Shown here: in pieces, positions 6,682 to 64,000 of the stretch
How positions within the stretch are numbered: position 1 is the first letter of the stretch
Layout: every line of letters starts with the position of its first letter
Source: an uncultured Acidobacteriota bacterium
GTDB taxonomy: Bacteria; Acidobacteriota; Thermoanaerobaculia; Multivoradales; UBA5704
Assembly (NCBI GenBank): GCA_963700145.1
Contig: OY969474.1
Coordinates: forward strand, 3,904,001 to 3,968,000
Length of the DNA stretch: 64,000 bases
Direction: 5' to 3'
The notes under the pieces: model-generated
Told to the model about the DNA's origin: nothing
What the model saw: only the letters and a program-made list of their open reading frames with translations
Database searches by the model: none
Made by a program: the position numbers and the translations under genes

Positions 6682-9312
6682 ATGAAACGCAAGTCGCTGT
6701 TCACGATCGCCTGTCTGCTGCTCCTGGGCGGGCTGCTGCCGGCCGCGGGCTTCGCCGCGGCGCCGCAACCCACCTCGGACCTGCTGCTCCCGTATTTCGA
6801 AGTCGACACGGCCGGCCCCGGCATCACGACGCTGCTCGGCGTCGGCAACGCCCTCGACCGGCCGGTGGACGTGTCGATCACGCTCCACACCAACTGGGGC
6901 CTACCGGTCTGGGAGACGACGCTCCGCTTCCAGGCCGACGAGGTCAAGACATTCAACTTGCGCGATTGGCTGCTCGGCGACTTTCCCGGCGCCGACCCCG
7001 GCGCCGCCGAGCTCGCGCACATCCAGGCCGCGCTGGCGGGGCAGGCCTCGCCCGCCGACGGCCTCTACTACGGCAGCTCGGTGGCGAACGACCGCGCCGT
7101 GGGCTACGTCGTCCTGCGCACGCAGGGGGACCGCCCCGACGCGCTCTGGGGGGACTTCTTCGCCGTCGACGTGCCGCAGGATTTCGCGCAGGGCGACAAT
7201 CTGGTCGACATCGACCCGGCCAAGGAGTGCGGCAGCGGCCTGTGCCGGCGCCACGCTCTCCGCTTCCTCTCGGGGGGTGCCTTCGACGGCGGCACGCAGC
7301 TGGTCGTCTGGACGCCGCGGCAGATCCAGCCGTCGCCGGCGGAGCCGCTCTTGGCGGCCGACCAGCTGGCCGTCGAGGCCAGCGTCTACGACGAGCCGGG
7401 GCAGCGCGTCGAGGAGCGCGTGCTCCTGGCGCTGCCCGTCGCCAAGATCGCGGTCGCCGATCTCGGCCTCGCCCCGTCCTTCGGCTGGCTCGACCTGGTG
7501 ACCGAGACGGAGTCCTACATCGGCGTCGACTACAGCGCCGAGAACCGCTACGCCTTGAGCCTGCGGGCCACCTGTCTGCCCATCGTGGTGCCGGAGGGGC
7601 CGCGCATCCGCATCAAGAAGTACACCAACGGCGACGACGCCGACACGGCGCCCGGCCCGTCGATCGCGGTGGGCGGCGCGGTGACCTGGGAGTACGAGGT
7701 GACGAACACCGGCGGCGTGGCGCTCGCCGAGATCACCGTCACCGACGACAAGGGGGTGGCCGTGAGCTGCCCCGAGACGGCGCTCGCGCCGGGCGAGTCG
7801 ATGACCTGCGTCGGGCACGGCGTCGCCGCCGCCTGTCAGTACCGCAACGTCGGCACCGCGATCGGCAGGACGGCCGAGGGGGAGGAGGTCAGCGACGACG
7901 ACCCCAGCCACTACGTCGGCACGCAGCAGGCGTCGATCGCCATCGTCAAGTCGACCAACGGCCAGGACGCCAACGACGCCCAAGGCCCGAAGATCGAAGT
8001 GGGGAAGCCGGTCGCCTGGACTTACGCCGTGACCAACAGCGGCGCCGTGCGGCTGACCGACGTCCGGGTGAGCGACGACGACCCGGGGGTCGCTGTCTCC
8101 TGCCCGAAGACCGAGCTGCAGCCGGGCGAGTCGATGACCTGCACGGCCAACGGCATCGCCAAGCTCGGCCAGTACCGGAACGTCGGCACGGCGCGCGGCA
8201 ACCCGCCCTGCGGCCCGGCGGTCGCCGACGACGACCCGAGCCACTACTTCGGCGAAGGTCCGCCCGACCCCGGGATCAAAATCGAGAAGCTGACCAACGG
8301 CCAGGACGCCGACCAGGCGCCGGGGCCTTCGATCGCGGTCGGCTCGCCGGTGACCTGGCAGTATCTGGTGACCAACACCGGCGGCGTCACGCTCGGCAAC
8401 CTCAGCGTGACCGATGACCAGGGCGTGGCCGTCTCCTGCCCGAAGACGACGCTCCAGCCGGGCGAGTCGATGACCTGCACTGGCCACGGCGTGGCGCAGT
8501 CCTGCCAGTACCGCAACCTCGGTACGGTGACGGGGAAGACCCCGACCGGCACCGACCTGACGGCGAGCGATCCCAGCCACTACTTCGGCCAGCACCACGC
8601 CGCGATCCGGATCGTCAAGTCGACCAACGGCCAGGACGCCAACTCGGCCCCGGGCCCGACGATCGCGGTCGGCGCTCCGGTCCTGTGGAGCTACGTCGTT
8701 GCCAACACCGGCGACGTGGCGCTCACCGGCGTCGCGGTGAGCGACGACCAGGGCGTGGCGGTCTCCTGCCCGAAGACGACGCTGCAGCCGGGCGAGTCGA
8801 TGACCTGCATCGGCAACGGCGTGGCCGTGGCCGGCCAGTACCGGAACGTCGGCGCCGCCCGCGGTACCCCGCCCTGCGGCGCCGCGGTCGCCGACGACGA
8901 CCCGAGCCACTACTACGCACCGTCGCCACCGCCGCCCGGCGGCGAGGGGTGCACTCCCGGCTACTGGAAGAACCACGAGGACTCCTGGCCGCCGACGGGT
9001 TACTCCACGAGCCAGACGGTGCAGAGCGTGTTCGGCCAGGCGAGCAACTACCCGACCCTCGCCTCGGCCACTCTCCACCAGGCGCTGTCGTTCCAGGGGG
9101 GCTCGACGCTCGAAGGGGCGGCCGACAACCTGCTGCGCGCGGCCGTGGCGGCGCTCCTCGACAGCGCCCACCCCGGCGTCGACTACCCGCGGACGACGGC
9201 CTCGGTGATCGGCGACGTCAACGCCGCCCTGGCGAGCGGCGACCGGGACACCGTGCTCGGCCTCGCCTCGGCGCTCGACCGTGACAACAACCTGGGCTGC
9301 CCGCTGAACTAA
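6682..9312 (+). CDS. Large secreted/surface protein with four tandem DUF11-like Ig repeats and C-terminal GCTPGYWKNH domain
   Basis: AAGGAGG SD and signal peptide; four repeats of about 110 aa (K..TNG.DA..W.Y.VTN.G..V.DD.GVAVSCP.T.L.PGESMTC..QYRN..DDPSHY). Confidence 0.85.
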   Translation: MKRKSLFTIACLLLLGGLLPAAGFAAAPQPTSDLLLPYFEVDTAGPGITTLLGVGNALDRPVDVSITLHTNWGLPVWETTLRFQADEVKTFNLRDWLLGDFPGADPGAAELAHIQAALAGQASPADGLYYGSSVANDRAVGYVVLRTQGDRPDALWGDFFAVDVPQDFAQGDNLVDIDPAKECGSGLCRRHALRFLSGGAFDGGTQLVVWTPRQIQPSPAEPLLAADQLAVEASVYDEPGQRVEERVLLALPVAKIAVADLGLAPSFGWLDLVTETESYIGVDYSAENRYALSLRATCLPIVVPEGPRIRIKKYTNGDDADTAPGPSIAVGGAVTWEYEVTNTGGVALAEITVTDDKGVAVSCPETALAPGESMTCVGHGVAAACQYRNVGTAIGRTAEGEEVSDDDPSHYVGTQQASIAIVKSTNGQDANDAQGPKIEVGKPVAWTYAVTNSGAVRLTDVRVSDDDPGVAVSCPKTELQPGESMTCTANGIAKLGQYRNVGTARGNPPCGPAVADDDPSHYFGEGPPDPGIKIEKLTNGQDADQAPGPSIAVGSPVTWQYLVTNTGGVTLGNLSVTDDQGVAVSCPKTTLQPGESMTCTGHGVAQSCQYRNLGTVTGKTPTGTDLTASDPSHYFGQHHAAIRIVKSTNGQDANSAPGPTIAVGAPVLWSYVVANTGDVALTGVAVSDDQGVAVSCPKTTLQPGESMTCIGNGVAVAGQYRNVGAARGTPPCGAAVADDDPSHYYAPSPPPPGGEGCTPGYWKNHEDSWPPTGYSTSQTVQSVFGQASNYPTLASATLHQALSFQGGSTLEGAADNLLRAAVAALLDSAHPGVDYPRTTASVIGDVNAALASGDRDTVLGLASALDRDNNLGCPLN

Positions 9313-37331: not shown

Positions 37332-37982
37332 TCACACGATGATGTTCGTCTCGGTGGAATCTATCGCAGCTCGGAAGACCTGCAGAGTGAGCCGTGCCGG
37401 CCCCAGCACGATCTCATCTAAATCGGCGAGCGGTGCTGCCTCAAGAAGGCACCGGCCGTTGAGCAGCGTCCCGTTCTTGCTGCCGAGATCCTCCAGAATC
37501 GCGCTTTGTGGACTCACGAGGATACGCGCGTGGCGGCGCGATACCAAGGGATGGGAGATCCAGACGACCGCCTCTCTAGTCCGACCTAGGAGGTTTTCCC
37601 CGTTCTCCAGCGCGACCACGCGCTCGTTCCAGACCAGACGATAGATGTGATCTGCCGCCGCCGGCGGCTGATCAACCCGCCATGCAGTGCCGCACCAGGC
37701 GTAGCCGAAGCTGTGCACGGTCCGGATGAGATGAGGTTGGCGTGAATCGTCACCGAGCACGCGACGAAGCTCCGCCACCAAATTCGACAGACTGGCCTCT
37801 GTGACGAACGCTCCCGGCCAGAGACACCCCAGCAAGTGGTCCTTCGATAGAGCCTGAGGCCGCTTCTCGAGCAAGACCTCGAGAAGACGAAAAGCCTTCG
37901 GGGAAAGATGTACGACTTCCCCGCTGCGTAGCAGCTCCCGGGTGTCGGTATCCAGAACGCAGTTGCTGAAGGCTATGCGCAT
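37332..37982 (-). CDS. Winged-helix (OmpR/CadC-type) transcriptional regulator with C-terminal FHA domain
   Basis: LSPKAFRLLEVL...LRRVLGDD...IRTVHSFGY; FHA motifs GR..VSRRHA..EDLGSKNGT. Confidence 0.92.
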   Translation of the reverse strand: MRIAFSNCVLDTDTRELLRSGEVVHLSPKAFRLLEVLLEKRPQALSKDHLLGCLWPGAFVTEASLSNLVAELRRVLGDDSRQPHLIRTVHSFGYAWCGTAWRVDQPPAAADHIYRLVWNERVVALENGENLLGRTREAVVWISHPLVSRRHARILVSPQSAILEDLGSKNGTLLNGRCLLEAAPLADLDEIVLGPARLTLQVFRAAIDSTETNIIV

Positions 37983-38125: not shown

Positions 38126-38196
38126 ATGCGAAGAACGTCCAGACCAACCTCAAGGCGGGAGCTAGGTACGTGGTCATCGACTGGGGGATGGGTTGA
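38126..38196 (+). pseudogene. Small peptide gene copy 1, (MA)KNVQTNLKAGARYVVIDWGMG; ATG is one base out of frame
   Basis: GAGGAGG SD, then ATGCG-AAG...; homologous to copies 2-4; a 1-nt deletion or sequencing error. Confidence 0.7.
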
Positions 38197-38236
38197 TGAA
38201 GGGCGACCTAATCCCAGCGGAGGGAGGTGAAAAGCG

Positions 38237-38302
38237 ATGAAAGTTCAGACCAACCTCAAGGCAGGCGCTAGGCACCAGATCATCGACTGGGGGATGGGTT
38301 GA
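38237..38302 (+). CDS. Small peptide MKVQTNLKAGARHQIIDWGMG (21 aa)
   Basis: Perfect SD GGAGGTGA, ATG and TGA; tandem paralogs. Confidence 0.85.
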   Translation: MKVQTNLKAGARHQIIDWGMG

Positions 38303-38341
38303 TGAAGGGCCACATAGTTCAGTGAAGGGAGGTGAGAAGCG

Positions 38342-38401
38342 ATGAAAGTTCAGACCAACCTCAAGGCGGGCGCTAGGCACCAGATCATCGACGTCGGGTA
38401 G
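38342..38401 (+). CDS. Small peptide MKVQTNLKAGARHQIIDVG (19 aa)
   Basis: Perfect SD GGAGGTGA, ATG and TAG. Confidence 0.85.
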   Translation: MKVQTNLKAGARHQIIDVG

Positions 38402-38435
38402 TCCCAGGCTGTCCACGAAGGGAGGTGAGAAGCGA

Positions 38436-38495
38436 ATGAAAGTTAAGACAAACCTCAAAGCGGGAGCTAGGCACCAGATCATCGACTTCGGGTAA
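38436..38495 (+). CDS. Small peptide MKVKTNLKAGARHQIIDFG (19 aa)
   Basis: Perfect SD GGAGGTGA, ATG and TAA; synonymous changes relative to copies 2 and 3. Confidence 0.85.
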   Translation: MKVKTNLKAGARHQIIDFG

Positions 38496-39760: not shown

Positions 39761-40013
39761 GGTCGGCGGCGTGAAAAGGGCCGCTGCGCCTGCGGGCGCG
39801 GCGGCCTGTTCCGTCGTCGAGCTCATCCGACGGCATGGCCCCGGGAGCCAAGCTGGTGCTGCAGGGCACCGGCTACCAGGTGGACAAATGAGTGCTCTGC
39901 GAGCCCGTCGTCTGCCCCGGCACGCTCTTCGGTTCCCATGGCACTCCTCTCCAAGGAGGGGCTGGAGCTCGCCGCGGCCCTGGAGAAGGTGGCGTAACGC
40001 CCGCCGGAAGCCC

Positions 40014-40328
40014 CGGAATATCCCTGCGCGACCTGCAGACGCCCCGGCGGAGCCTCCTAATGTCCTCCCGGGACCTCGGAACCTGTTGCGCGCCCTCCGG
40101 AACCTCCTGCGCGACGCCGGGAATCGACTGCGCGACGCCGGGAATGGGTTGCGCGCGCTGCGGAACCTCCTCCGAGCCGCTCGGAAAGGGTCCCCGGCGC
40201 TCCGCAACCTGTTCCCCGGCCCGCGCAACCCATTCCCACGCTCCGGGGGAGGGTTCCGGAGCCGCCGCAGGACGTTCCACGCCTCCCGCAGGCCATTGGC
40301 CGCCGCGCGCCGGCCGATCGCCGCCGCT
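40014..40328. repeat. 21-bp-period degenerate tandem array A (about 15 units, SG[G/C]AA...TTSC core)
   Basis: Unit starts at 40077, 40098, 40119, 40140, 40161, 40182, 40203 and 40224. Confidence 0.8.
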
Positions 40329-40578
40329 CGGCGGGCGTCGCGGAGCGTCGCACCCTCAATCCCTAGGACGAGACCCAACCGCCGCGGAGACCGGCTGCCC
40401 GGGGGAGTCAGGTCCAAGGTGACGGGCGACGACGACTTCTGACGCCCAGAGCATGATGTCCAGATTCTGGACGGCGGTTGGTGGTGGCCGGCACCTTCTT
40501 TGCAGTTTCGCACCAACCGAGATTGGGGCGGCAGCCATCGCGGGGGTTTACCGCGCCGAATTCGCAGGAGGAATTCAC

Positions 40579-43676: not shown

Positions 43677-43724
43677 CCCGCCAACCGACTGCTGCTAGGG
43701 TCGCCTGCGCCAAGGCAGGAGAGC

Positions 43725-44486
43725 TTGCCCATGACCCATCGCCGGATTGCGTTCCCGTCGCACGCTCTGTTGGCAGTAGCGCTGGCGCTGGCGCCTGCGG
43801 TCACGGCACGAGCGGAGGAGCCCGTGGACTCGCTCCTCCGCCGCCAGACCCAGGAGCTCATGGATGCCGTCGCTCCCGGTGAGATCGACGTCTGGCAGCG
43901 GTATCTCCTCGACGACGTCGTCTACCTCGACGAGGACGGCGTCGTGCACGACAAGGCGTCGCTGCTCCGCGAGTTGAAGCCCCTGCCGCCGGGCCTGGTC
44001 GGGCGCATCGAGGTCGATCGCTTCGCGCTGACCCGGCACGGCGAGATCGCCGTCGTGGCGGCGGAGATCCAGGAGTACCTCGATTACCATGGCCAGCCGC
44101 TGCGCACCCGCTTCCGCTTCCTCGACACCTGGCTCCGCACGCCCGACGGCTGGCGCCTCGCCGCCCGCCACACCGCGGCCGTCCTCAAAGACCCGCCCGC
44201 GATCGTGCTGTCTCGCGAGGAGCTCTGCGCCCACGCGGGCATCTACCGGCTCACCCCGGAGATCGTCACGACCGTGAGATGCGACGCCAACGGCTTGGTC
44301 GCCGAGCGTACCGGGCGCCCGCCGGAGACCCTCCTCGCGGAGGCGCGCGACGTCTTCTTCGTCGCGGGCAAGCCGCGCAGCCGGCGCATCTTCCTTCGCG
44401 ACGACGGCAACGTCGCCGCGTTCGTCGACCGCCGTGAAGGCGAAGACGTCCGCTGGACGAGGGTGCCGGATGCGCCGGCACCCTGA
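43725..44486 (+). CDS. Secreted NTF2-like (DUF4440) protein
   Basis: Signal peptide; YLDEDG..HDK..RFLDTW..DGWRL. Confidence 0.75.
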   Translation: MPMTHRRIAFPSHALLAVALALAPAVTARAEEPVDSLLRRQTQELMDAVAPGEIDVWQRYLLDDVVYLDEDGVVHDKASLLRELKPLPPGLVGRIEVDRFALTRHGEIAVVAAEIQEYLDYHGQPLRTRFRFLDTWLRTPDGWRLAARHTAAVLKDPPAIVLSREELCAHAGIYRLTPEIVTTVRCDANGLVAERTGRPPETLLAEARDVFFVAGKPRSRRIFLRDDGNVAAFVDRREGEDVRWTRVPDAPAP

Positions 44487-44568
44487 AGCGAAGACCGCGG
44501 CGGCGGAAGACCTCTCCACGTCCTCCTCAGAGGTCGCCGGAAGGCTTCCGGGCGCCTCCCCGGGGCCT

Positions 44569-44778
44569 GCGGATGTATCCGGAAGGCGGGCGGATCTATC
44601 CGGAAGAGCCGCGGATCTATCCGGCGCGCCTGGGGATATATCCGGCGCGCCTGCGGATGCATCCGGAAGCGCTGCGGATGTATCCGGAACGCCCGCGGAT
44701 ATATCCGGAAGCGCCGCGGATGGATCCAGAGGGGCCGCGGATGGATCCGGAGGCGCCCCGGATACATCCGGACGTCTC
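44569..44778. repeat. 21-bp-period tandem array B (10 units, palindromic core GGAT-NN-ATCC)
   Basis: Units at 44569+21n for n=0-9, all containing GGATnnATCC. Confidence 0.92.
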
Positions 44779-44806
44779 GCTCCCTTATCCCCAGCCGTTC
44801 CGACCG

Positions 44807-46171
44807 GGATGTGTCCCGATTCTTGTGGAGATTCGGCGTAACCCCCTGACTGTCGGGTTGACGTTAGCTCCTCACGCGGCCTGCGTCCAAATCGTGGCGA
44901 GGAAACGTTGCAGGTCTTGGTGGCCATTGACGCTGCGTAGGCGGATCTGGCCGCAGGCCACCAGTGCCCAGAGCAGGGTCAAGGCCGCCTCTTCGGTGGC
45001 GAAGCTGGCCTGGGTCTTGGTGCGGCGTCGAAACTCGCGATGGAGGTTTTCCAGCGCGTTGGTCGAGCGTAGGGTCCTCCACAGCGAGCGGGGAAACTCG
45101 TAGAAGGTCAACAGCTCCTCTCCGGCCTCCTCGAGCGAGCGGGCGACAGCCGGACACAGGCGAGACCACTTGGCGAGGAAGGCCGCGTAGGCCTGATGGG
45201 CCGCCCCACCGTCGCGGGCCTCGACGATCGGGCGCCAGTCGCGCCGGAGCTCGCCGCGAGCATGGCGCGGGCAGTGCTCCAGCAGGTTTCGGAGCTTGTG
45301 CTGGGTGCAACGCTGCACGCGCACCCCCGGCCACGCCGCCAGCGCCTTGCGCAAGCCAGCGTGGCCGTCGACGATGAGCAACTCGGGCGCCGCCAAGCCC
45401 CGCCGCTGCAGATCCTCGAGCAGCTCGCCCCACAGCCGCGCCGCCTCGCTCGTGGCCAACCGTAACGCCACCAGGACCTTGCCGCCATCGGGGCGCACGC
45501 CCAGAGCGGCCAGCACCGGCACCGCCACCACCCGCCGGGCCAGCCGCACCTTGACGTGGAACCCGTCGAGAAACAGCAGCGCGTAACGCTCGCCCGCACA
45601 ATCGCGCTCCCGCCAGGCCGCAAACCGCTCTTTGAGCCGCCCCACCACGCGCGAGGCCGCGCTCTTGGACAGGTGCTCTTCTCCCAGCAGCGGCGCCAGC
45701 GCCTTGCCGATCCGTCGGCTATTGGCCCCCGCCAGATAGCACGACAGGATCGCCGCGTCGATCTCCCGCACCCGCCGCGCGTAGCGCGGCACCAACGCGC
45801 TGGCGAACTCTTCCGTCGTGCCCTCCACTGTGGCCACCCGACCGCGCGGCACCCGCAGCGGCCGGGTCCCCGCCACCGTCGTCACCCGCCGTAGCGTGGC
45901 TCCGTTGCGGTAGCCGCGGCGCACCGCCGTCCGCTCGTAGGGCTGCGCACCCAGCGCCTCCTGAAGCTCCTGCTCTAGCACCAGCTCCACGGCCTCCAGA
46001 AGCCTCTGCTCGAGCAGCCGCCGGATGTCCTGGCGCAGCGGCACCACCTCCTGCTCTGACGTGCTAGCCTCCCACATGGCGTAACCCTCCTCCGCCGCCC
46101 ACGCGACGGGATGTGCTTGACAGCTAGGAGGTTACGCCACTTTCTTTTTCCACAAGAATCGGGACGGATCC
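44807..46171 (-). mobile_element. IS256-family insertion sequence
   Basis: Terminal inverted repeats GGAT(GT/CC)GTCCCGATTCTTGTGGA; 8-bp target duplication TCCGACCG at 44799-44806 and 46172-46179. Confidence 0.93.
44872..46077 (-). CDS. IS256 (Mutator-like) DDE transposase
   Basis: Motifs YERT..RRGYRNG, LRVPR, LFLDG, LIVDGHAGL, QRCTQHK and STNALENLHREFRRRTK. Confidence 0.95.
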   Translation of the reverse strand: MWEASTSEQEVVPLRQDIRRLLEQRLLEAVELVLEQELQEALGAQPYERTAVRRGYRNGATLRRVTTVAGTRPLRVPRGRVATVEGTTEEFASALVPRYARRVREIDAAILSCYLAGANSRRIGKALAPLLGEEHLSKSAASRVVGRLKERFAAWRERDCAGERYALLFLDGFHVKVRLARRVVAVPVLAALGVRPDGGKVLVALRLATSEAARLWGELLEDLQRRGLAAPELLIVDGHAGLRKALAAWPGVRVQRCTQHKLRNLLEHCPRHARGELRRDWRPIVEARDGGAAHQAYAAFLAKWSRLCPAVARSLEEAGEELLTFYEFPRSLWRTLRSTNALENLHREFRRRTKTQASFATEEAALTLLWALVACGQIRLRSVNGHQDLQRFLATIWTQAA

Positions 46172-46271
46172 TCCGACCGCATCTCCCGCCTCTGCGGGAA
46201 CCTCCCGGAGCCCCGCTCCGCCAACCCGCCAACCCAGGGAGACAACCGCGGCCTTTGGAGCGATTCCCTGA

Positions 46272-46712
46272 CTAGGTCGCCGAGGAGGCGGTGAATGGGT
46301 TCTCGACAGTGATCCCTTCGTAGCTGCGCCCGTCGGTCAGATCCTCCGAGATCAAGCGGGTGCAGCCGGCCCGCCGCGCGGCTTCCAGGATCGTCGCGTC
46401 CCACGCGGAGATCTGGGCCCGGTGAGAGAGGCCGACGGCGTCCAGCACGAGGTCCGGCGTGACCTCGACGACGTGCCACACCGTGAGCACCCGCAGGTAC
46501 TCCAAGGCACGCGCATGCTCCAGCCGGGCCGCGACTTTGCGCGTTACGGTGACGTAGAGCTCGAGGAGGACCTGCGAGCTGATCGCATAGCAGCCTTCCG
46601 CGAACCCGCGCTCCAGAATCTCCCGGGCGATCTGGTGCTTCCGCGGGTCATCGCCTGTGACCGCATAGACGAGGACGTTGGTATCGAGGAAAGCGGTCGG
46701 CTCACCGCTCAT
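46272..46712 (-). CDS. PIN-domain (VapC-like) toxin
   Basis: Motifs FLDTNVLVY, SSQVLLE, WDATI and SEDL. Confidence 0.9.
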   Translation of the reverse strand: MSGEPTAFLDTNVLVYAVTGDDPRKHQIAREILERGFAEGCYAISSQVLLELYVTVTRKVAARLEHARALEYLRVLTVWHVVEVTPDLVLDAVGLSHRAQISAWDATILEAARRAGCTRLISEDLTDGRSYEGITVENPFTASSAT

Positions 46713-46941
46713 GGAGCTCGTCGCGCGAGGGCAGAGGTCGTCCGCCGAGCCTCACCGGGGCTTCGTCGATGAGGGGGCGGATCGACTCCCACGCGGCGAG
46801 GCGGCGCTGCTCGTCGTCGGTCAGGCGCTCGAGGAGCTGCCGAACCAGCTCATTGACCGTCGTGTGTCTCCTCGCGGCGACGCTCCGCGCCTGCTGCAGC
46901 AGCTCTTCTTCGACGACGAGAGTGAGGTTGCGGCGAGCCAT
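46702..46941 (-). CDS. Antitoxin (RHH/DUF6364-like)
   Basis: NLTLVVEEELL..AR..A..TTVNELVR..L..SRDELHER; overlaps the toxin; GCACGG-atc-CCGTGC palindrome in the promoter (46954-46968). Confidence 0.85.
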   Translation of the reverse strand: MARRNLTLVVEEELLQQARSVAARRHTTVNELVRQLLERLTDDEQRRLAAWESIRPLIDEAPVRLGGRPLPSRDELHER

Positions 46942-47040
46942 GGGGCGACCATAGCACGGATCCCGTGCAATGGCGCAGGGCGGGGGATACGGCGGGGGAC
47001 AGGCAAGCTGCCCCCCACACGGAACGTAAGGCTCGGCGAC

Positions 47041-59961: not shown

Positions 59962-61077
59962 TCACGGCACTGTCGCCTGCGTCTCGGGCCCGGCCTCGCT
60001 CTCGTTGCCCTGTTGGTCGACGGCGGTGACGCGGTAGGTGTAGGCGCGGCCGGCGGCGACGTCGGTGTCGCTGTACTCAAGGGCGGCGAGCGGCTCGGCG
60101 GTGAGCTTGCGCCAGGCGCCGGCGCCTTCGCGGCGGTAGACCAGGTAGCCCGCGAGGTCGGCGGCGGGGCTGGAGCGCCAGACGAGGCGCACCCGGCCGC
60201 TCTCGGCGAGCGCCACGAGGTCGGCCGGCGGCGGCGGCGCGAAGCGGTCGAGGTAGCGCACCTCGCGCTCGGCCTGGACGGCGCTCTCGACGAGCGGCGC
60301 GGTGCGCCCGACGCTGGTGACGGCGTAGATGTAGCTGGCGCCGAAGGCGGCGGTGGTGTCGAGGTGGCGGGTGGCGGTGGGCGGCAGGGTCGCCAGCGGC
60401 TGGCGGCCGTCGCGCGCCGTCGCCTCGCGGCGGTAGACGTTGAACCCCTTGACCGCCTCGCCGCCGTGCGACGGCGGCCGCCAGGTGATCTCGATCCCCT
60501 CGGCGGTCGGCGTGACGTTCAGCTCCTCCGGCGCCGGCGGCGGCGCCTGGGTCACCAGGATCGCCTGGTTGGAGATCGCCGAGCGGTCCCCCTCGGGCCC
60601 GACGGTGCGGACGACGTAGTGGTGCGCCACCGGCCCCTCGGCCGGCACCGGCGGCGCCGGCAGGCGGAGGAGCAAGCGGTCGCCGGCGGCGGCGGAGGCC
60701 AGCTCGGGCCCTTCGAGGCGGAGGAGGAGCTTGGCGGCGGCCTCGAGCTGCCGCGGGTCGAGCGGCGGCGGCTCTCCCTCGCGCGGCGCCGGGCGCACCG
60801 CGTCCCAGACCTCGAGGGCGCTGAGGCCGCCGAGCAGGACGCCCGCCGGCGTCGTCTGCGGGTAGCCGAGCTCGAAGAGGAGCTGCGGGCCGCGCTGCAC
60901 GACCGTCAGGTCCTGCGTCGGCGCCGGCACCATGCGCAGCGGCGGCGCCGGCGGGCCCTCCTTGCCGCAGGCGGTGAGGGTGAGCAAGAGGCAAGCGACA
61001 ACCGCTGTCGCGCCACCCTGCCCCCAGATCCCTCGCTCACGCTCGGGATGACAATGGTGGCCGTTCGTGCGCTTCAA
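59962..61077 (-). CDS. Lipoprotein with fibronectin type III domains (start TTG overlapping the hslU stop is inferred)
   Basis: Lipobox [24 protein letters not shown] and YRVTAVD..GNES. Confidence 0.8.
61021..61053. repeat. REP-like palindromic element, half copy within the lipoprotein 5' region
   Basis: CCCCCAGATCCCTCGCTCACGCTCGGGATGACA. Confidence 0.85.
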
Positions 61078-62468
61078 AGCACGTACCGGGAGAGGTCCTG
61101 GTCCTGGACGATGTCGACCAGGGCCTTGCGCACGTAGGCGCCGTCGACGGCGAGCGTCACGCCCGCCATGTCGGGGGCGCCGAAGGAGACCTCGTCGAGC
61201 ACCCGCTCCATCAGCGTCGCCAGGCGCCGCGCGCCGATGTTCTCGGTCGCCGAGTTGACCTCGACCGCCAGCCGCGCCAGCTCGGTCACCGCGTCGTCGG
61301 TGAAGGAGAGCGACAGGCCCTCGGTCGAGAGCAGCGCCGCGTACTGCTTGGTGAGCGCGGTCTCGGGCTCGGTCAGGATGCGCACGAAGTCGTGCTCGGT
61401 CAGGGCGTCGAGCTCCACGCGGATGGGGAACCGCCCCTGCAGCTCCGGGATCAGGTCCGAGGGCTTGGAGACGTGGAAGGCGCCGGCGGCGATGAACAGG
61501 ATGTGGTCGGTCTTGACGACGCCGTACTTGGTCGAGACCGTCGTCCCCTCGACGATCGGCAGCAGGTCGCGCTGCACCCCCTCGCGCGAGACGTCCGGGC
61601 CGCGCGAGCCTTCGCGGCCGGCGATCTTGTCGATCTCGTCGAGGAAGATCATGCCGCCCTGCTCGACGCGGTGGCGGGCCTCGCGCGCCACGGTGGCGCG
61701 GTCGATCAGCTTCTCCGACTCCTGCTGGTGGAGGATCTCCTTGGCCTCGGCCACCGTCACCTGCTGCTTCTTCTTCCGCCCGAAGAGGCCGGGGAGCATG
61801 TCCTTGACGTTGATCCCCACCTCCTCGACGCCCTGCGGCGTGAACATCTCCATGCTCGGGAAGCTGGCGTCGTCGACCTCGATCTCGACGTGCCGCGCGT
61901 CGAGCGCCCCCGAGCGCAGCTTGGCGCGGAACTTCTCGCGCGTCGCCGACAGCTCGTCGAGGTCCTCGTCGCTCTCGCTGCGCAGGTAGCTCGACACCGG
62001 CCGCGGCGGCACCAGGAGCTGGAGGAGGCGCTCCTCGGCGTTCCTGGCGGCGGCCTCGCGCACCGCCTCGCGCTTCTCCTCGCGCACCATGCCGACGGCG
62101 ATCTCCACCAGGTCGCGCACCATCGACTCGACGTCGCGCCCGACGTAGCCCACCTCGGTGAACTTGCTCGCCTCGACCTTCATGAAGGGCGCCTTGGCGA
62201 GCTTGGCCAGGCGGCGGGCGATCTCGGTCTTGCCGACGCCGGTGGGGCCGATCATCAGGATGTTCTTGGGCGCGATCTCCTCGGCGATCTCGGGCGGCAG
62301 CTGCTGGCGCCGCCAGCGGTTGCGCAGGGCGATCGCCACCGCGCGCTTGGCGTCGTGCTGGCCGACGACGTACTTGTCGAGCTCGCCGACGATCTGCCGC
62401 GGCGTCATGTTGTCGAGGGCGCCGGCCTGGGCGTCGCCGGCGGGGTGCCCCTTGAGCTCGAGCGACAT
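61074..62468 (-). CDS. hslU: ATP-dependent protease ATPase subunit HslU
   Basis: Motifs [43 protein letters not shown] and ENIGARRL. Confidence 0.98.
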
Positions 62469-62471
62469 GGC

Positions 62472-63020
62472 CTAGAGCTCCTCGACCGTCAGCTGCTCGT
62501 TGGTGAAGACGCAGATCTCGGCGGCGATGCGCATCGCCTCGCGCACGATCTCGGCGGCGTCGAGCTTCGTGTGGCGCAGCAGGGCGCGCGCCGCGGCGAG
62601 GGCGAAGTTGGCGCCGGAGCCGACCGCCAGCACCCCGTCCTCCTCGTCCGGCTGCAGCAGCTCGCCGGTGCCCGAGACGTAGAAGCTCTTCTCCTTGTCG
62701 GCCACCAGGAGCATCGCCTGGAGCTGGCGCAGGGCGCGGTCGGTGCGCCAGTCCTTGGCCAGCTCGACGACGGCGCGCTCGAGGTTCCCGCCGAACTCCT
62801 CGAGCTTGGCCTCCAGCCGGGTGAAGAGGGCGAGGGCGTCGGCGCCGCCGCCGGCGAAGCCGACCAGCACCTTCCCCTTCCCCGCCCGCCGCACCTTGCG
62901 CGCGCTCGCCTTGACGATGGTGTTGCTGTTCATCGTCACCTGGCCGTCGCTCGCCATGCACACCTTGCCGTCGCGGCGCACCAGGAGCACGGTCGTCGAA
63001 TGGAAGGTAGACGTGTCCAC
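62472..63020 (-). CDS. hslV: ATP-dependent protease peptidase subunit HslV
   Basis: [29 protein letters not shown] and ICVFTN. Confidence 0.97.
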
Positions 63021-63068
63021 GGGGGAGGGATTCTAGCGCGGGGCTCGCGGGAGGCCCGGGAAGGGTGG

Positions 63069-63383
63069 CGGAACGTCCCCCAGAGGCCCGGGAGATGCCC
63101 CGGCGCGGCCTGGAGATCCCCCGGCGGAGCCCGAGATGTCCTCCCGGAGCCTCGGAATGTCCTCCGCAGCCCGCGGAATGCATTCCCAGCGGCCGGGAAT
63201 GTATTCCGAGGCGCCGGGAATCCATTCCGAGCGCGGCGGAATCGATTCCGAAGCCCTGGGAATCTATTCCGAGCGCCCGGGAATCGATTCCCAAGCGCTC
63301 GGAATCCATTCCCAGGCTCCGGGAACCTATTCCGAAGCCTCGGGAGCTCATCTCCCACGGCTCGGAGGCGATCTCCAGCGGCT
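63069..63383. repeat. 21-bp-period tandem array C (15 units, palindromic core GGAAT-NN-ATTCC)
   Basis: Units at 63069+21n; seven consecutive perfect cores in units 63174-63300. Confidence 0.92.
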
Positions 63384-63438
63384 CGCGGGAGCCTCCCGCC
63401 GCTCCGGGGCCGAGCCGGACCCCTGAGTCCAAGCCAGT

Positions 63439-63468
63439 TTGACGCGAGGTACGCCTCTGGCGTACGGT
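63439..63468 (+). promoter_or_regulatory. higBA promoter with palindromic operator
   Basis: TTGACG-18-TACGGT enclosing GTACGCC-tct-GGCGTAC. Confidence 0.6.
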
Positions 63469-63480
63469 GTGCCGGGGCCG

Positions 63481-63798
63481 ATGCTCCTCATCGAGACCGC
63501 GGTCTTCACGCGCCGGGTGCAGGCGCTCCTGCAGGACGATGAGTACCGTCTCCTTCAGCTCCACCTGGCCGGGCAGCCGGATGCCGGGCCTGTGATCAAG
63601 GGCGCCGGCGGCTTGCGAAAGGCACGCTGGTCGGTTGGAGCACGCGGCAAGCGCGGAGGCGTACGGGTGATCTACTACTGGGCGAAGCCACAGGATCGCA
63701 TCCTCATGCTGTTGATCTACTCGAAGGCTGAGCGCGACGACCTCACCAGGGCTCAGATAGGAATTCTGCGAAAGATCGTGGAGGACGAGTATTCATGA
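63481..63798 (+). CDS. RelE/HigB-family toxin
   Basis: IET..F..PDAG.VI.G.GGLRKARW..GKRGGVRVIYY..IYSK.E.DDL. Confidence 0.9.
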   Translation: MLLIETAVFTRRVQALLQDDEYRLLQLHLAGQPDAGPVIKGAGGLRKARWSVGARGKRGGVRVIYYWAKPQDRILMLLIYSKAERDDLTRAQIGILRKIVEDEYS

Positions 63799-64000
63799 AG
63801 CAGGAGTTGTTCTCCGAGTTGGTTGAGAGCGTTCGCGAGGGTGGCGCCATTCTCAAGGGCAAGGCGAAACCGTCACGGGTCTTCGAGGTGAAGACGCCGG
63901 AGGTTCGGGAGATTCGGGAAGCCTACGACCTCTCGCAAGCCGAGTTCGCGGCATTGCTCGGCATCAGCGTCGACACCGTCCAGAACTGGGAACAGGGTCG
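63795..64000 (+). CDS. HigA-like XRE HTH antitoxin (truncated by the window end)
   Basis: MKQELFSELVESVREG...IREAYDLSQAEFAALLGISVDTVQNWEQG; ATGA overlap with the toxin. Confidence 0.88.
   Translation, partial: MKQELFSELVESVREGGAILKGKAKPSRVFEVKTPEVREIREAYDLSQAEFAALLGISVDTVQNWEQG

Follow-up and report, generated by a model that had tools for sequence, protein, structure and literature searches.

Array C is a run of tandem 21-bp units with dyad-symmetric cores in a 64-kb stretch of an Acidobacteriota genome (contig OY969474.1 of assembly GCA_963700145.1, positions 3,904,001 to 3,968,000; hereafter the window, with all positions counted from its first letter). It lies between the start of the divergent gene hslV and a pair of RelE/HigB-like and HTH_3 genes. 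Here, we propose that array C is one copy of a non-coding, modular, multi-copy interspersed repeat family in a Thermoanaerobaculia-like (Acidobacteriota) genome, similar in kind to BOX elements and bacterial interspersed mosaic elements (BIMEs), and we put the probability of this reading at roughly 0.55. The family resembles known bacterial interspersed repeats and has apparently not yet been described. Repetitive extragenic palindromes (REPs) and their BIME clusters, BOX elements and mycobacterial interspersed repetitive units (MIRUs) shape genome plasticity, gene expression and strain typing, and what is known of them comes almost entirely from well-studied pathogens and model organisms. The present family comes from a poorly studied class, Thermoanaerobaculia, and is unusually crystalline, with perfect 12-bp dyads exactly two helical turns apart.

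Laid out in rows of 21 bp, the array keeps a single register without a break over 63070-63405. About 13 recognisable units occupy the 16 rows; mismatches to the core GGAATNNATTCC number 4, 6, 6, 4 and 2 in the first rows, are absent from the next seven, and then rise through 1, 4, 4, 6 and 6. A first-pass annotation of the window, which had described 15 units, seven of them perfect, with conservation decaying towards both ends, was thus essentially right. The seven perfect GGAAT-NN-ATTCC units start at 63175, 63196, 63217, 63238, 63259, 63280 and 63301, and their centres are, in order, GC, GT, CC, CG, CT, CG and CC. The decayed 5′ units keep the left half-site, with CCTCC or CCCCC in place of the right half. 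The 9-bp linkers had been called unique; they do vary, but are semi-conserved (roughly SAGSSSCYS), GC-rich and partly palindromic, and are present in both orientations, while the linkers of the sister array B are CGGCGCTTC. One core, that of the unit at 63280, is the centre of a 30-bp palindrome, an arrangement that was rejected as a general rule.

Periodicity was examined in a sliding lag scan of the whole window. Self-identity of at least 0.6 occurs only at lag 21 (and 42) and at only three sites, around 40015-40207 (array A, maximum 0.65), 44520-44820 (array B, 0.79) and 63085-63409 (array C, 0.71); lags 18-20 and 22-24 never exceed 0.57. These are the three intergenic arrays that had been reported, B being accompanied by a leader remnant (table 1), and Tandem Repeats Finder (TRF) recovers the same arrays with periods of 21, 42 and 63. 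All 10 matches of a degenerate three-unit pattern in the window fall in arrays B and C, and 100 dinucleotide-preserving shuffles gave none; a chance origin of the periodicity and the dyads is excluded. Pseudo-dyads recur every 10.5 bp in the window, with a complementarity of 0.5-0.63 over ±150 bp, where the background is 0.285 ± 0.046. The 10.5-bp AT/GC harmonic, a DNA-wrapping signal, was sought by a Fourier test; the result was weak and inconsistent and was dropped as evidence.

Array C does not encode a protein. The window is 70% G+C, and G+C content at third codon positions (GC3) is 0.99 in hslV, 1.00 in hslU and 0.85-0.98 in other credible genes, compared with 0.59-0.66 in all six frames of the array over 63131-63372. 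Five of these six frames are stop-free, in line with the earlier remark that several are open; stop-free frames are expected in such DNA. That the array encodes a translated protein of seven-residue repeats (a coiled coil) is a most improbable reading. In its favour are the open frames and the fact that the same unit pattern matches genuine heptad-repeat genes elsewhere (loci with PF23991). GC3, Pfam and the search for relatives all speak against such translated coiled-coil open reading frames (ORFs): Pfam gave no match at E ≤ 0.01 for three array ORFs, and a search of ~5.8 billion clustered predicted proteins, in the near-length range only, found no relative of two plus-strand frames of array C at E ≤ 0.001. 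Array C shows neither the codon bias of its genome nor the profile match that would place it with heptad-repeat coiled coils such as PF23991 (DUF7310-like). The expectation that annotation pipelines would call the frames hypothetical proteins found no support in the two plus-strand frames searched, whose pseudo-proteins lack relatives; an exact look-up of seven window ORFs, HslV included, found them absent from the protein collection and is uninformative on annotation. With five of six frames open, such arrays can give spurious ORFs in high-GC genomes, and they can also break assemblies of metagenome-assembled genomes (MAGs). Rfam 15 returned nothing at the gathering threshold in the arrays of the whole window; the best sub-threshold match in 62950-63480 scored 36.7 bits against a threshold of 100, and those found there were only microRNA-like hairpins far below threshold.

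A modular element in many copies

Arrays A, B and C are not independent lattices but copies, related to one another, of a single modular and multi-copy interspersed element. All three have leader or 5′ unit sequence in common; array A is ~72% similar to array C, and array C, on the plus strand, has the same polarity as the B-type copies and a related leader. Sub-types are distinguished by their cores: GGAAT..ATTCC in C, CGGAT..ATCCG in B and a decayed mirror form in A. An alignment of six B-type copies (L008, L014, L035, L053, L060 and, on the minus strand, array B) gives one polar architecture: a leader of ~65-70 bp comes first, then the fixed head unit CGGATAAGGGAG, next 3 to 10 CGGAT-NN-ATCCG units with a CGGCGCTTC-like linker, and last a tail of ~85 bp. 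Units in the tail carry other dyads (e.g. CCTCT-GG-AGAGG) and an inverted repeat that is hairpin-capable and has one compensatory change in L014/L041. L014 and L041 hold copies of array A at 93% identity, and the left flanks differ at all three loci. Neither terminal inverted repeats nor target duplications were found at the ends of array B or A. The first-pass annotation had suspected an undescribed repeat system: the system is real and non-coding and no description of it was found in the literature, but the arrays are copies of one modular element, of a known kind of bacterial repeat (BOX/BIME/MIRU-like).

Copies in other genomes were collected by scanning genome contigs for three consecutive perfect units SGRATNNATYCS at 21-bp spacing, which returned 62 loci (L numbers). 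Eight of these are in one Thermoanaerobaculia MAG (contigs DATLOC01...) whose flanking genes are ~95% identical to those of the window; L061 is the orthologue of array C and L060 that of array B, while the other six are copies at unrelated sites. The same core types occur in at least three species-level MAGs of Thermoanaerobaculia (L036, L039 and the DATLOC loci). The elements are dispersed in intergenic DNA, gain and lose whole units and tolerate insertion sequences (ISs). A complete IS256-family element (Mutator-type, Pfam Transposase_mut 1e-86) occupies 44807-46171 within the array B leader; its terminal inverted repeats, 22 bp long, are near-identical, and an 8-bp target duplication lies at 44799-44806 and 46172-46179; it is absent from the orthologous L060 and is unrelated to the leader sequence into which it was inserted.

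Fifteen of the 62 loci were set aside because they are, or probably are, heptad repeats that code for protein (L006, L013, L025, L026, L027, L028, L033, L038, L042, L045, L050, L051, L056, L058 and L062), the call being only probable for L026, L027, L045, L051 and L062. Several of them fit the PF23991 coiled-coil profile or form part of large proteins. L038, L050 and L033 score above the cut-off of PF23991 (DUF7310), and the Nocardia loci L013 and L025 match it more weakly; the heptad-repeat genes that the scan matched are from Nocardia, Mycobacterium and Clostridia (L013, L025, L033, L038 and L050, at ~1900-2350). The cores of these loci mostly lack dyad symmetry, and the loci form a useful negative control class. 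The two position pairs left free by the scan pattern are fully complementary in 214 of 261 units from the 47 non-coding-type loci, compared with 18 of 61 units from the 15 coding-type loci, and symmetric units form the majority in 36 of the 47 against 25% expected by chance. The scarcity of dyads in coding-type loci argues further against translation of array C, as does the lack of any open spanning frame in arrays L003, L011, L015 and L049.

Neighbours, breakpoints and sequence change

The arrays lie at junctions with accessory genes (table 1), as the first-pass annotation had proposed, at sites where gene content differs between two ~95%-identical genomes. Two of them adjoin toxin-antitoxin (TA) modules, again as it had stated: array C stands before the RelE/HigB-like and HTH_3 genes, and array B has a DUF4440 gene on one side and, on the other, a PIN gene that a small DUF6364-like gene precedes. 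Across 13 Thermoanaerobaculia-type arrays (the three in the window and 10 loci) a clear TA-type neighbour is present in five, a plain count from which no enrichment is claimed. Four to five of seven B-type copies lie between convergent genes (best-case binomial p 0.013), counted from greedy ORF calls supported by Pfam or GC3.

Table 1. Array modules and neighbouring genes in the window.
Feature	Position	Strand	Remarks
Array C leader-like module	63021..63069	+	Directly upstream of hslV start (opposite strand); resembles B-type leader (GCGGGGCTC..GGGAGG..GGAAC)
Array C, five decayed 5′ units	63070..63174	+	2-6 mismatches to core; homologous to 5′ units of array A
Array C, seven perfect units	63175..63321	+	Each GGAAT-NN-ATTCC + 9-bp linker; conserved unit by unit in orthologue L061
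Array C, decayed 3′ units and tail	63322..63405	+	GGAACCTATTCC, GGGAGCTCATCTCCC, GGAGGCGATCTCC; 15-bp palindrome GCGGGAGCCTCCCGC at 63385-63399
Array B, sister element	44483..44806	-	Head CGGATAAGGGAG, 10 units CGGAT-NN-ATCCG + CGGCGCTTC-type linkers, tail with inverted repeat
Array B leader	46172..46241	-	Separated from array B by IS256-family insertion 44807-46171
Array A, dispersed copy, 362 bp	40002..40363	+	Left units GGAAC-NN-GTTGC; right units mirror GCAAC-NN-GTTCC; non-periodic tail after
hslV (proteasome-type peptidase)	62472..63020	-	Pfam Proteasome; conserved flank, leader side of array C; 95% identical to L061
hslU	61074-62468		Pfam AAA_2; GC3 1.00
RelE/HigB-like toxin gene	63439..63798	+	Pfam RelE 22.4 bits, below cut-off 27; variable flank, tail side of array C
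HTH_3 (XRE) antitoxin-like gene	63795 to window end		HTH_3 35.7 bits
VapBC-like pair	46272..46941	-	Small DUF6364-like gene (46702-46941) + PIN-domain gene (46272-46712); upstream of array B leader

Comparison with the DATLOC01 MAG was made for two locus pairs only (array B with L060, array C with L061), and MAG loci may contain assembly errors. Positions 1-2156 of L061 match window 61238-63372 at 95.4%, and synteny ends at ~63372, ~20 bp before the end of the array C tail. On the higB/higA side L061 offers only a 141-bp match at 86% identity, over the last part of the region. Nothing in L060 matches the PIN pair (window 46242-46991) or DUF4440 (43682-44482), although the array that lies between them is 90.5% identical. 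Three of the four flanks of arrays B and C are therefore synteny breakpoints within ~20 bp of the element ends, beside TA or accessory genes, and the breakpoints fall at element ends and not inside cores. Directly after the array C tail in L061, at 2160-2279, stands a 120-bp inverted fragment that is 97.5% identical to an internal piece of hslU, and that stems either from a true rearrangement where the array ends or from an error of assembly. The pattern of breakpoints fits a role in recombination, without proving one; the simplest explanation is that the dispersed copies provide portable homology for recombination. Should the association hold genome-wide, the arrays would mark hotspots of accessory-gene exchange.

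Fourfold-degenerate sites of hslV and hslU are identical between window and L061 at 319 of 339 positions (94.1%), and the central part of array C, at 231/242 (95.5%), is in this test for selection no more conserved than they are. L061 has exactly one extra 21-bp unit. The leader and the decayed 5′ part of array C (63021-63130) are identical at only 84 of 109 positions; array B is 90.5% identical to L060, with coding flanks at 95-96%. When changes are pooled over B and C by position in the unit, 8 of 180 arm positions, 14 of 162 linker positions and 10 of 36 positions of the central dinucleotide have changed. The centre thus changes faster than fourfold sites (20/339 changed; p = 1.5e-4), and its changes are not reverse-complement flips. 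Unit order and linkers are inherited, while the centres churn by new mutation or by short-patch conversion between units with identical arms.

Rates of this kind could be produced by a minisatellite or selfish repeat without function, which expands and contracts by slippage and unequal exchange, is copied by ectopic recombination and persists only where insertions are tolerated. We consider this explanation unlikely, although it would account for the near-fourfold rate of change in central array C, for the faster change of array B relative to its coding flanks and for the whole-unit indel, the decay at the ends, the tolerated IS insertion and the permissive junction sites. It is weakened by the arms, which within arrays are far more uniform than the linkers, because plain slippage would homogenise linkers equally. 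Nor does it lead one to expect dyad symmetry at free positions in most units, core types that persist in at least three species-level MAGs, leader and tail modules conserved across copies, or a similar architecture in several phyla.

A fast-changing centre is also what a landing pad might display, in which each core is a crossover site whose central dinucleotide is cut by a site-specific recombinase or nuclease, so that the arrays capture and exchange cassettes. In serine recombinases the strand exchange takes place at a 2-bp overlap in the middle of the site, and the breakpoints beside TA and accessory genes, the two linker orientations in array C and the mirror halves of array A would all suit such a role. 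We nevertheless hold it to be very unlikely. No recombinase gene lies beside any of the 13 Thermoanaerobaculia-type arrays; known recombinase sites are far longer than 12-bp cores; and, in two orthologous comparisons only, central changes are not strand flips and breakpoints spare the cores.

The window contains other repeats as well. Tandem repeats of 106/94 bp at 38128-38494 contain up to three copies of a ribosome-binding site with an ORF of ~21 codons; 38237-38302 is one intact copy (MKVQTNLKAGARHQIIDWGMG), and an FHA/OmpR-type regulator at 37332-37982 adjoins. These may be small-peptide genes or genes for precursors of ribosomally synthesized and post-translationally modified peptides (RiPPs). 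A 330-bp unit present 3.9 times at 71% identity (7624-8914, TRF score 1162) probably represents a domain that recurs within one large coding region. The window also holds a complete rRNA operon (16S, two tRNAs, 23S and 5S) at 11539-16712.

Probable duplex dyads and look-alike arrays

The symmetry of the cores is of the type expected for duplex DNA. This is inferred because many cores are palindromic over all 12 bp, which leaves no room for a loop (e.g. GGAATCGATTCC and GGGGTTAACCCC), because a 2-nt centre is unable to loop and because broken pairs show no wobble or strand bias: they comprise six G.U on the leader-to-tail strand, four on the other strand and 15 other mismatches, and this wobble-pair test gave no sign of selection at the RNA level. 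Both strands of 63026-63425 fold better than shuffles (z = -5.7 and -6.7), and for that reason the folding test does not tell DNA from RNA.

The palindromes might instead act in single-stranded form, either as RNA (3′-UTR stabilisers or terminators, as proposed for REP and BOX) or as single-stranded DNA serving as substrates of an HUH-type (IS200/IS605 or RAYT-like) transposase. Mobilisation of the HUH type would explain spread without the terminal inverted repeats or target duplications that are missing from B and A, and hairpins in general would agree with the strong folding of both strands, the compensatory change in the B tail of L014/L041, a hypervariable centre resembling a loop (10/36 against 8/180 in the arms) and the position of B-type copies between convergent genes, that is, at 3′ ends. 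Such a role appears improbable all the same. A 5+2+5 unit cannot close a 2-nt loop and would be left with a 4-bp stem, yet the innermost A-T pair is among the best conserved; several cores are loopless palindromes; and the broken pairs lack the expected bias. A scan of 62800-63900 found no sigma-70-like promoter and no intrinsic terminator, inspection of the array C leader by eye for extracytoplasmic function (ECF)-type or sigma-54 motifs yielded nothing convincing, and no Rfam family applies. No HUH transposase gene is present in the flanks examined, which is not a whole-genome test.

We tentatively favour, at somewhat less than even odds, a reading in which the cores are double-stranded DNA dyad sites for a dimeric protein that assembles as a cooperative lattice. 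An AT-rich centre between outer triplets ~9 bp apart is the operator layout of dimeric helix-turn-helix (HTH) proteins. The lattice is favoured because the arms are kept alike as linkers drift, because an AT-rich centre separates the outer triplets and because the spacing is of two turns. Each element consists of a leader, a variable number of 21-bp units and a tail, with each unit comprising a 12-bp dyad, SGR-ATNNAT-YCS, and a 9-bp semi-palindromic linker. An HTH-like dimer would bind each core, its recognition elements reading the outer triplets ~9 bp apart and leaving the AT-rich centre uncontacted; at 21 bp, or two helical turns, every dimer would sit on one face of the helix, and the array would then nucleate a cooperative protein lattice. 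Secondarily, dispersed copies of ~300 bp could supply homology and promote the exchange of flanking cassettes. The arrays would, given a protein that forms such a lattice, offer a tractable model of cooperative nucleoprotein assembly on bacterial chromosomes.

Several observations weigh against this lattice of dimers and the role in exchange that goes with it. No DNA-binding gene is consistently adjacent to the arrays, HTH_3 being found only beside array C of the window, L019 and L052, and no binding protein for the cores was identified among the ORFs adjoining the arrays. Over this short divergence 4.4% of arm positions have changed against 5.9% of fourfold sites, a difference that is not significant (p = 0.55), so that purifying selection on the arms is not demonstrated. 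A centre that is faster than neutral is not predicted by a simple model of an uncontacted centre and needs an extra cause, e.g. short-patch conversion or single-strand or enzymatic damage. The comparison covers two orthologous locus pairs only, and the breakpoints could simply reflect permissive intergenic sites of fast turnover. Finally, the 21-bp period and the core were imposed by the scan pattern, so recurrence across phyla says nothing about other periods.

Within that limit, multi-copy arrays of 8-20 units occur in Verrucomicrobiota (GGGAT-NN-ATCCC; L004, L005, L011, L012, L032, L034, L054, L057 and L059), in Bacteroidota (L003, L010, L055, L024 and L049), in a Treponema MAG (GGAATGTATTCC; L019, L029, L043 and L052) and in a Geomesophilobacter (L021). 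Their linkers are 9-bp near-palindromes with a central G or C (AAAT-C-ATTT, AATT-C-AATT), and their ends decay in mirror fashion. The outer triplets vary symmetrically between and within arrays while AT..AT stays: L032 has GGTAT..ATACC beside GGGAT..ATCCC, and L055 has blocks of GGGGTTAACCCC, GGGAACGTTCCC and GGGATCAATCCC.

Some of these loci merit separate mention. In the Treponema MAG an HTH_3 (XRE-family) gene ends beside the GGAATACATTCC arrays of L019 (2212-2544) and L052 (2107-2439), with conserved flanking sequence, and the L019 HTH_3 region appears duplicated. Whole 21-bp units, linkers included, are 72-80% similar across phyla in the pairs L003/L004 (Prevotellaceae and Verrucomicrobiales), L059 with L008, L035 and L060 (Verrucomicrobiaceae and Thermoanaerobaculia) and L018/L043 (Thermoanaerobaculia and Treponema), a similarity that may reflect shared constraint or transfer. 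L016 contains, at 2000-2062, three exact 21-bp copies (CGGGATTTATTCC and an A-run) directly downstream of the glmS 3′ end and next to SMODS and DUF6602 genes; perhaps they mark where an element that integrated at the glmS hotspot ends, and are not a member of the array class.

A broader proposal takes phased 21-bp dyad lattices (SGR-ATNNAT-YCS with a symmetric 9-bp linker) in Acidobacteriota, Verrucomicrobiota, Bacteroidota, Spirochaetota and others as a cross-phylum class, each array being bound by its own dimeric protein or recombinase, which acts on the central dinucleotide, and anchoring the exchange of accessory cassettes such as TA genes. We regard this as decidedly unlikely; if true, it would describe a previously unrecognised platform of gene turnover, distinct from integrons, from REP/RAYT and from CRISPR arrays.

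Comparison with known systems

A full-text literature search, with subscription-only papers and supplementary PDFs beyond its reach, found no description of a 21-bp dyad array family; the 'multicopy sequence' families of Geobacter are different motifs in the available part of their description (PMC2700814). A blastn search of 63020-63440 against plasmid and phage collections gave no match, and the low-complexity filter of BLAST may hide repeats.

Array C is neither a CRISPR array nor an iteron array or centromere of a plasmid, and it matches no known RNA. Where CRISPR has repeats of ~23-50 bp and unique spacers, array C has a 12-bp conserved part and semi-conserved, GC-rich 9-bp linkers, and no Cas family is encoded among the ORFs adjoining the arrays (the rest of the window was not scanned for cas genes). 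Parallels in geometry are helically phased, often dyad-symmetric sites that nucleate cooperative protein lattices, such as sopC, parC, omega heptads, MetJ metboxes and tandem ARG boxes 21 bp apart. Centromere and operator arrays, however, are single loci beside par or regulator genes, whereas the present arrays occupy many loci per genome beside unrelated neighbours; the flanks hold no par or rep genes, and the neighbours are hslVU, TA genes, DUF4440, IS256 and an fn3 protein. As for transposon ends of the Tn7 or Mu kind, in which a few asymmetric sites stand in inverted orientation at each end and flank transposition genes, array A does have mirror halves, without transposition genes between or beside them, and B and C have at least 10 symmetric sites in one block.

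MIRU and other variable-number tandem repeat (VNTR) loci and STAR elements likewise consist of short tandem units at many intergenic loci, with gain and loss of units and stable linkers. MIRU units measure 40-100 bp, and STAR is a 14-bp direct repeat with spacers of roughly 40 bp; the units of these systems are not phased dyads. STAR-type loci, as the accessible part of one account has it, expand and contract by short intergenic units and keep a locus-specific spacer that is stable within lineages (PMC3532100).

REPs and BIMEs share with the arrays the clustering of extragenic palindromes, characteristic linkers, a preference for 3′ ends and their nature as hotspots for rearrangement and IS insertion. 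REPs are, in the accessible portion of the source, imperfect palindromes of 20-40 bp tagged GTAG or CGTC (PMC3733652). The dyads here are 12 bp long and untagged (starting GGAAT or CGGAT), and keep one strict 21-bp phase without alternating orientation; the REP head is thus lacking, and no RAYT gene was seen in the flanks examined (64 kb and 4-kb loci). REP/BIME DNA is bound as a duplex by gyrase and IHF.

BOX elements are closest in behaviour, followed by REP/BIME clusters and by STAR/MIRU-type loci. The arrays belong to none of these, for they lack terminal inverted repeats and a GTAG or CGTC tag and differ in the size and symmetry of the unit. The unit here is 21 bp with a perfect 12-bp dyad (boxB is 45 bp), look-alikes occur in several phyla, and homology to streptococcal boxA, boxB and boxC is unlikely given the different phylum and GC content. 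Terminal inverted repeats matching an IS of the host are not found at arrays B and A. Pneumococcal BOX, as described in the part of the source available, has the structure boxA-(boxB)n-boxC, is enriched between convergent genes and carries ORFs on both strands (PMC3049150). Within the same limits the likeness extends to conserved end modules around variable tandem internal modules (here, six B-type copies with 3 to 10 units), to many dispersed intergenic copies (three arrays in 64 kb and eight loci in the ~95%-identical MAG), to over-representation at 3′ ends and between convergent genes, to open frames on both strands with a risk of mis-annotation, and to variation in copy number between strains (PMC3049150).

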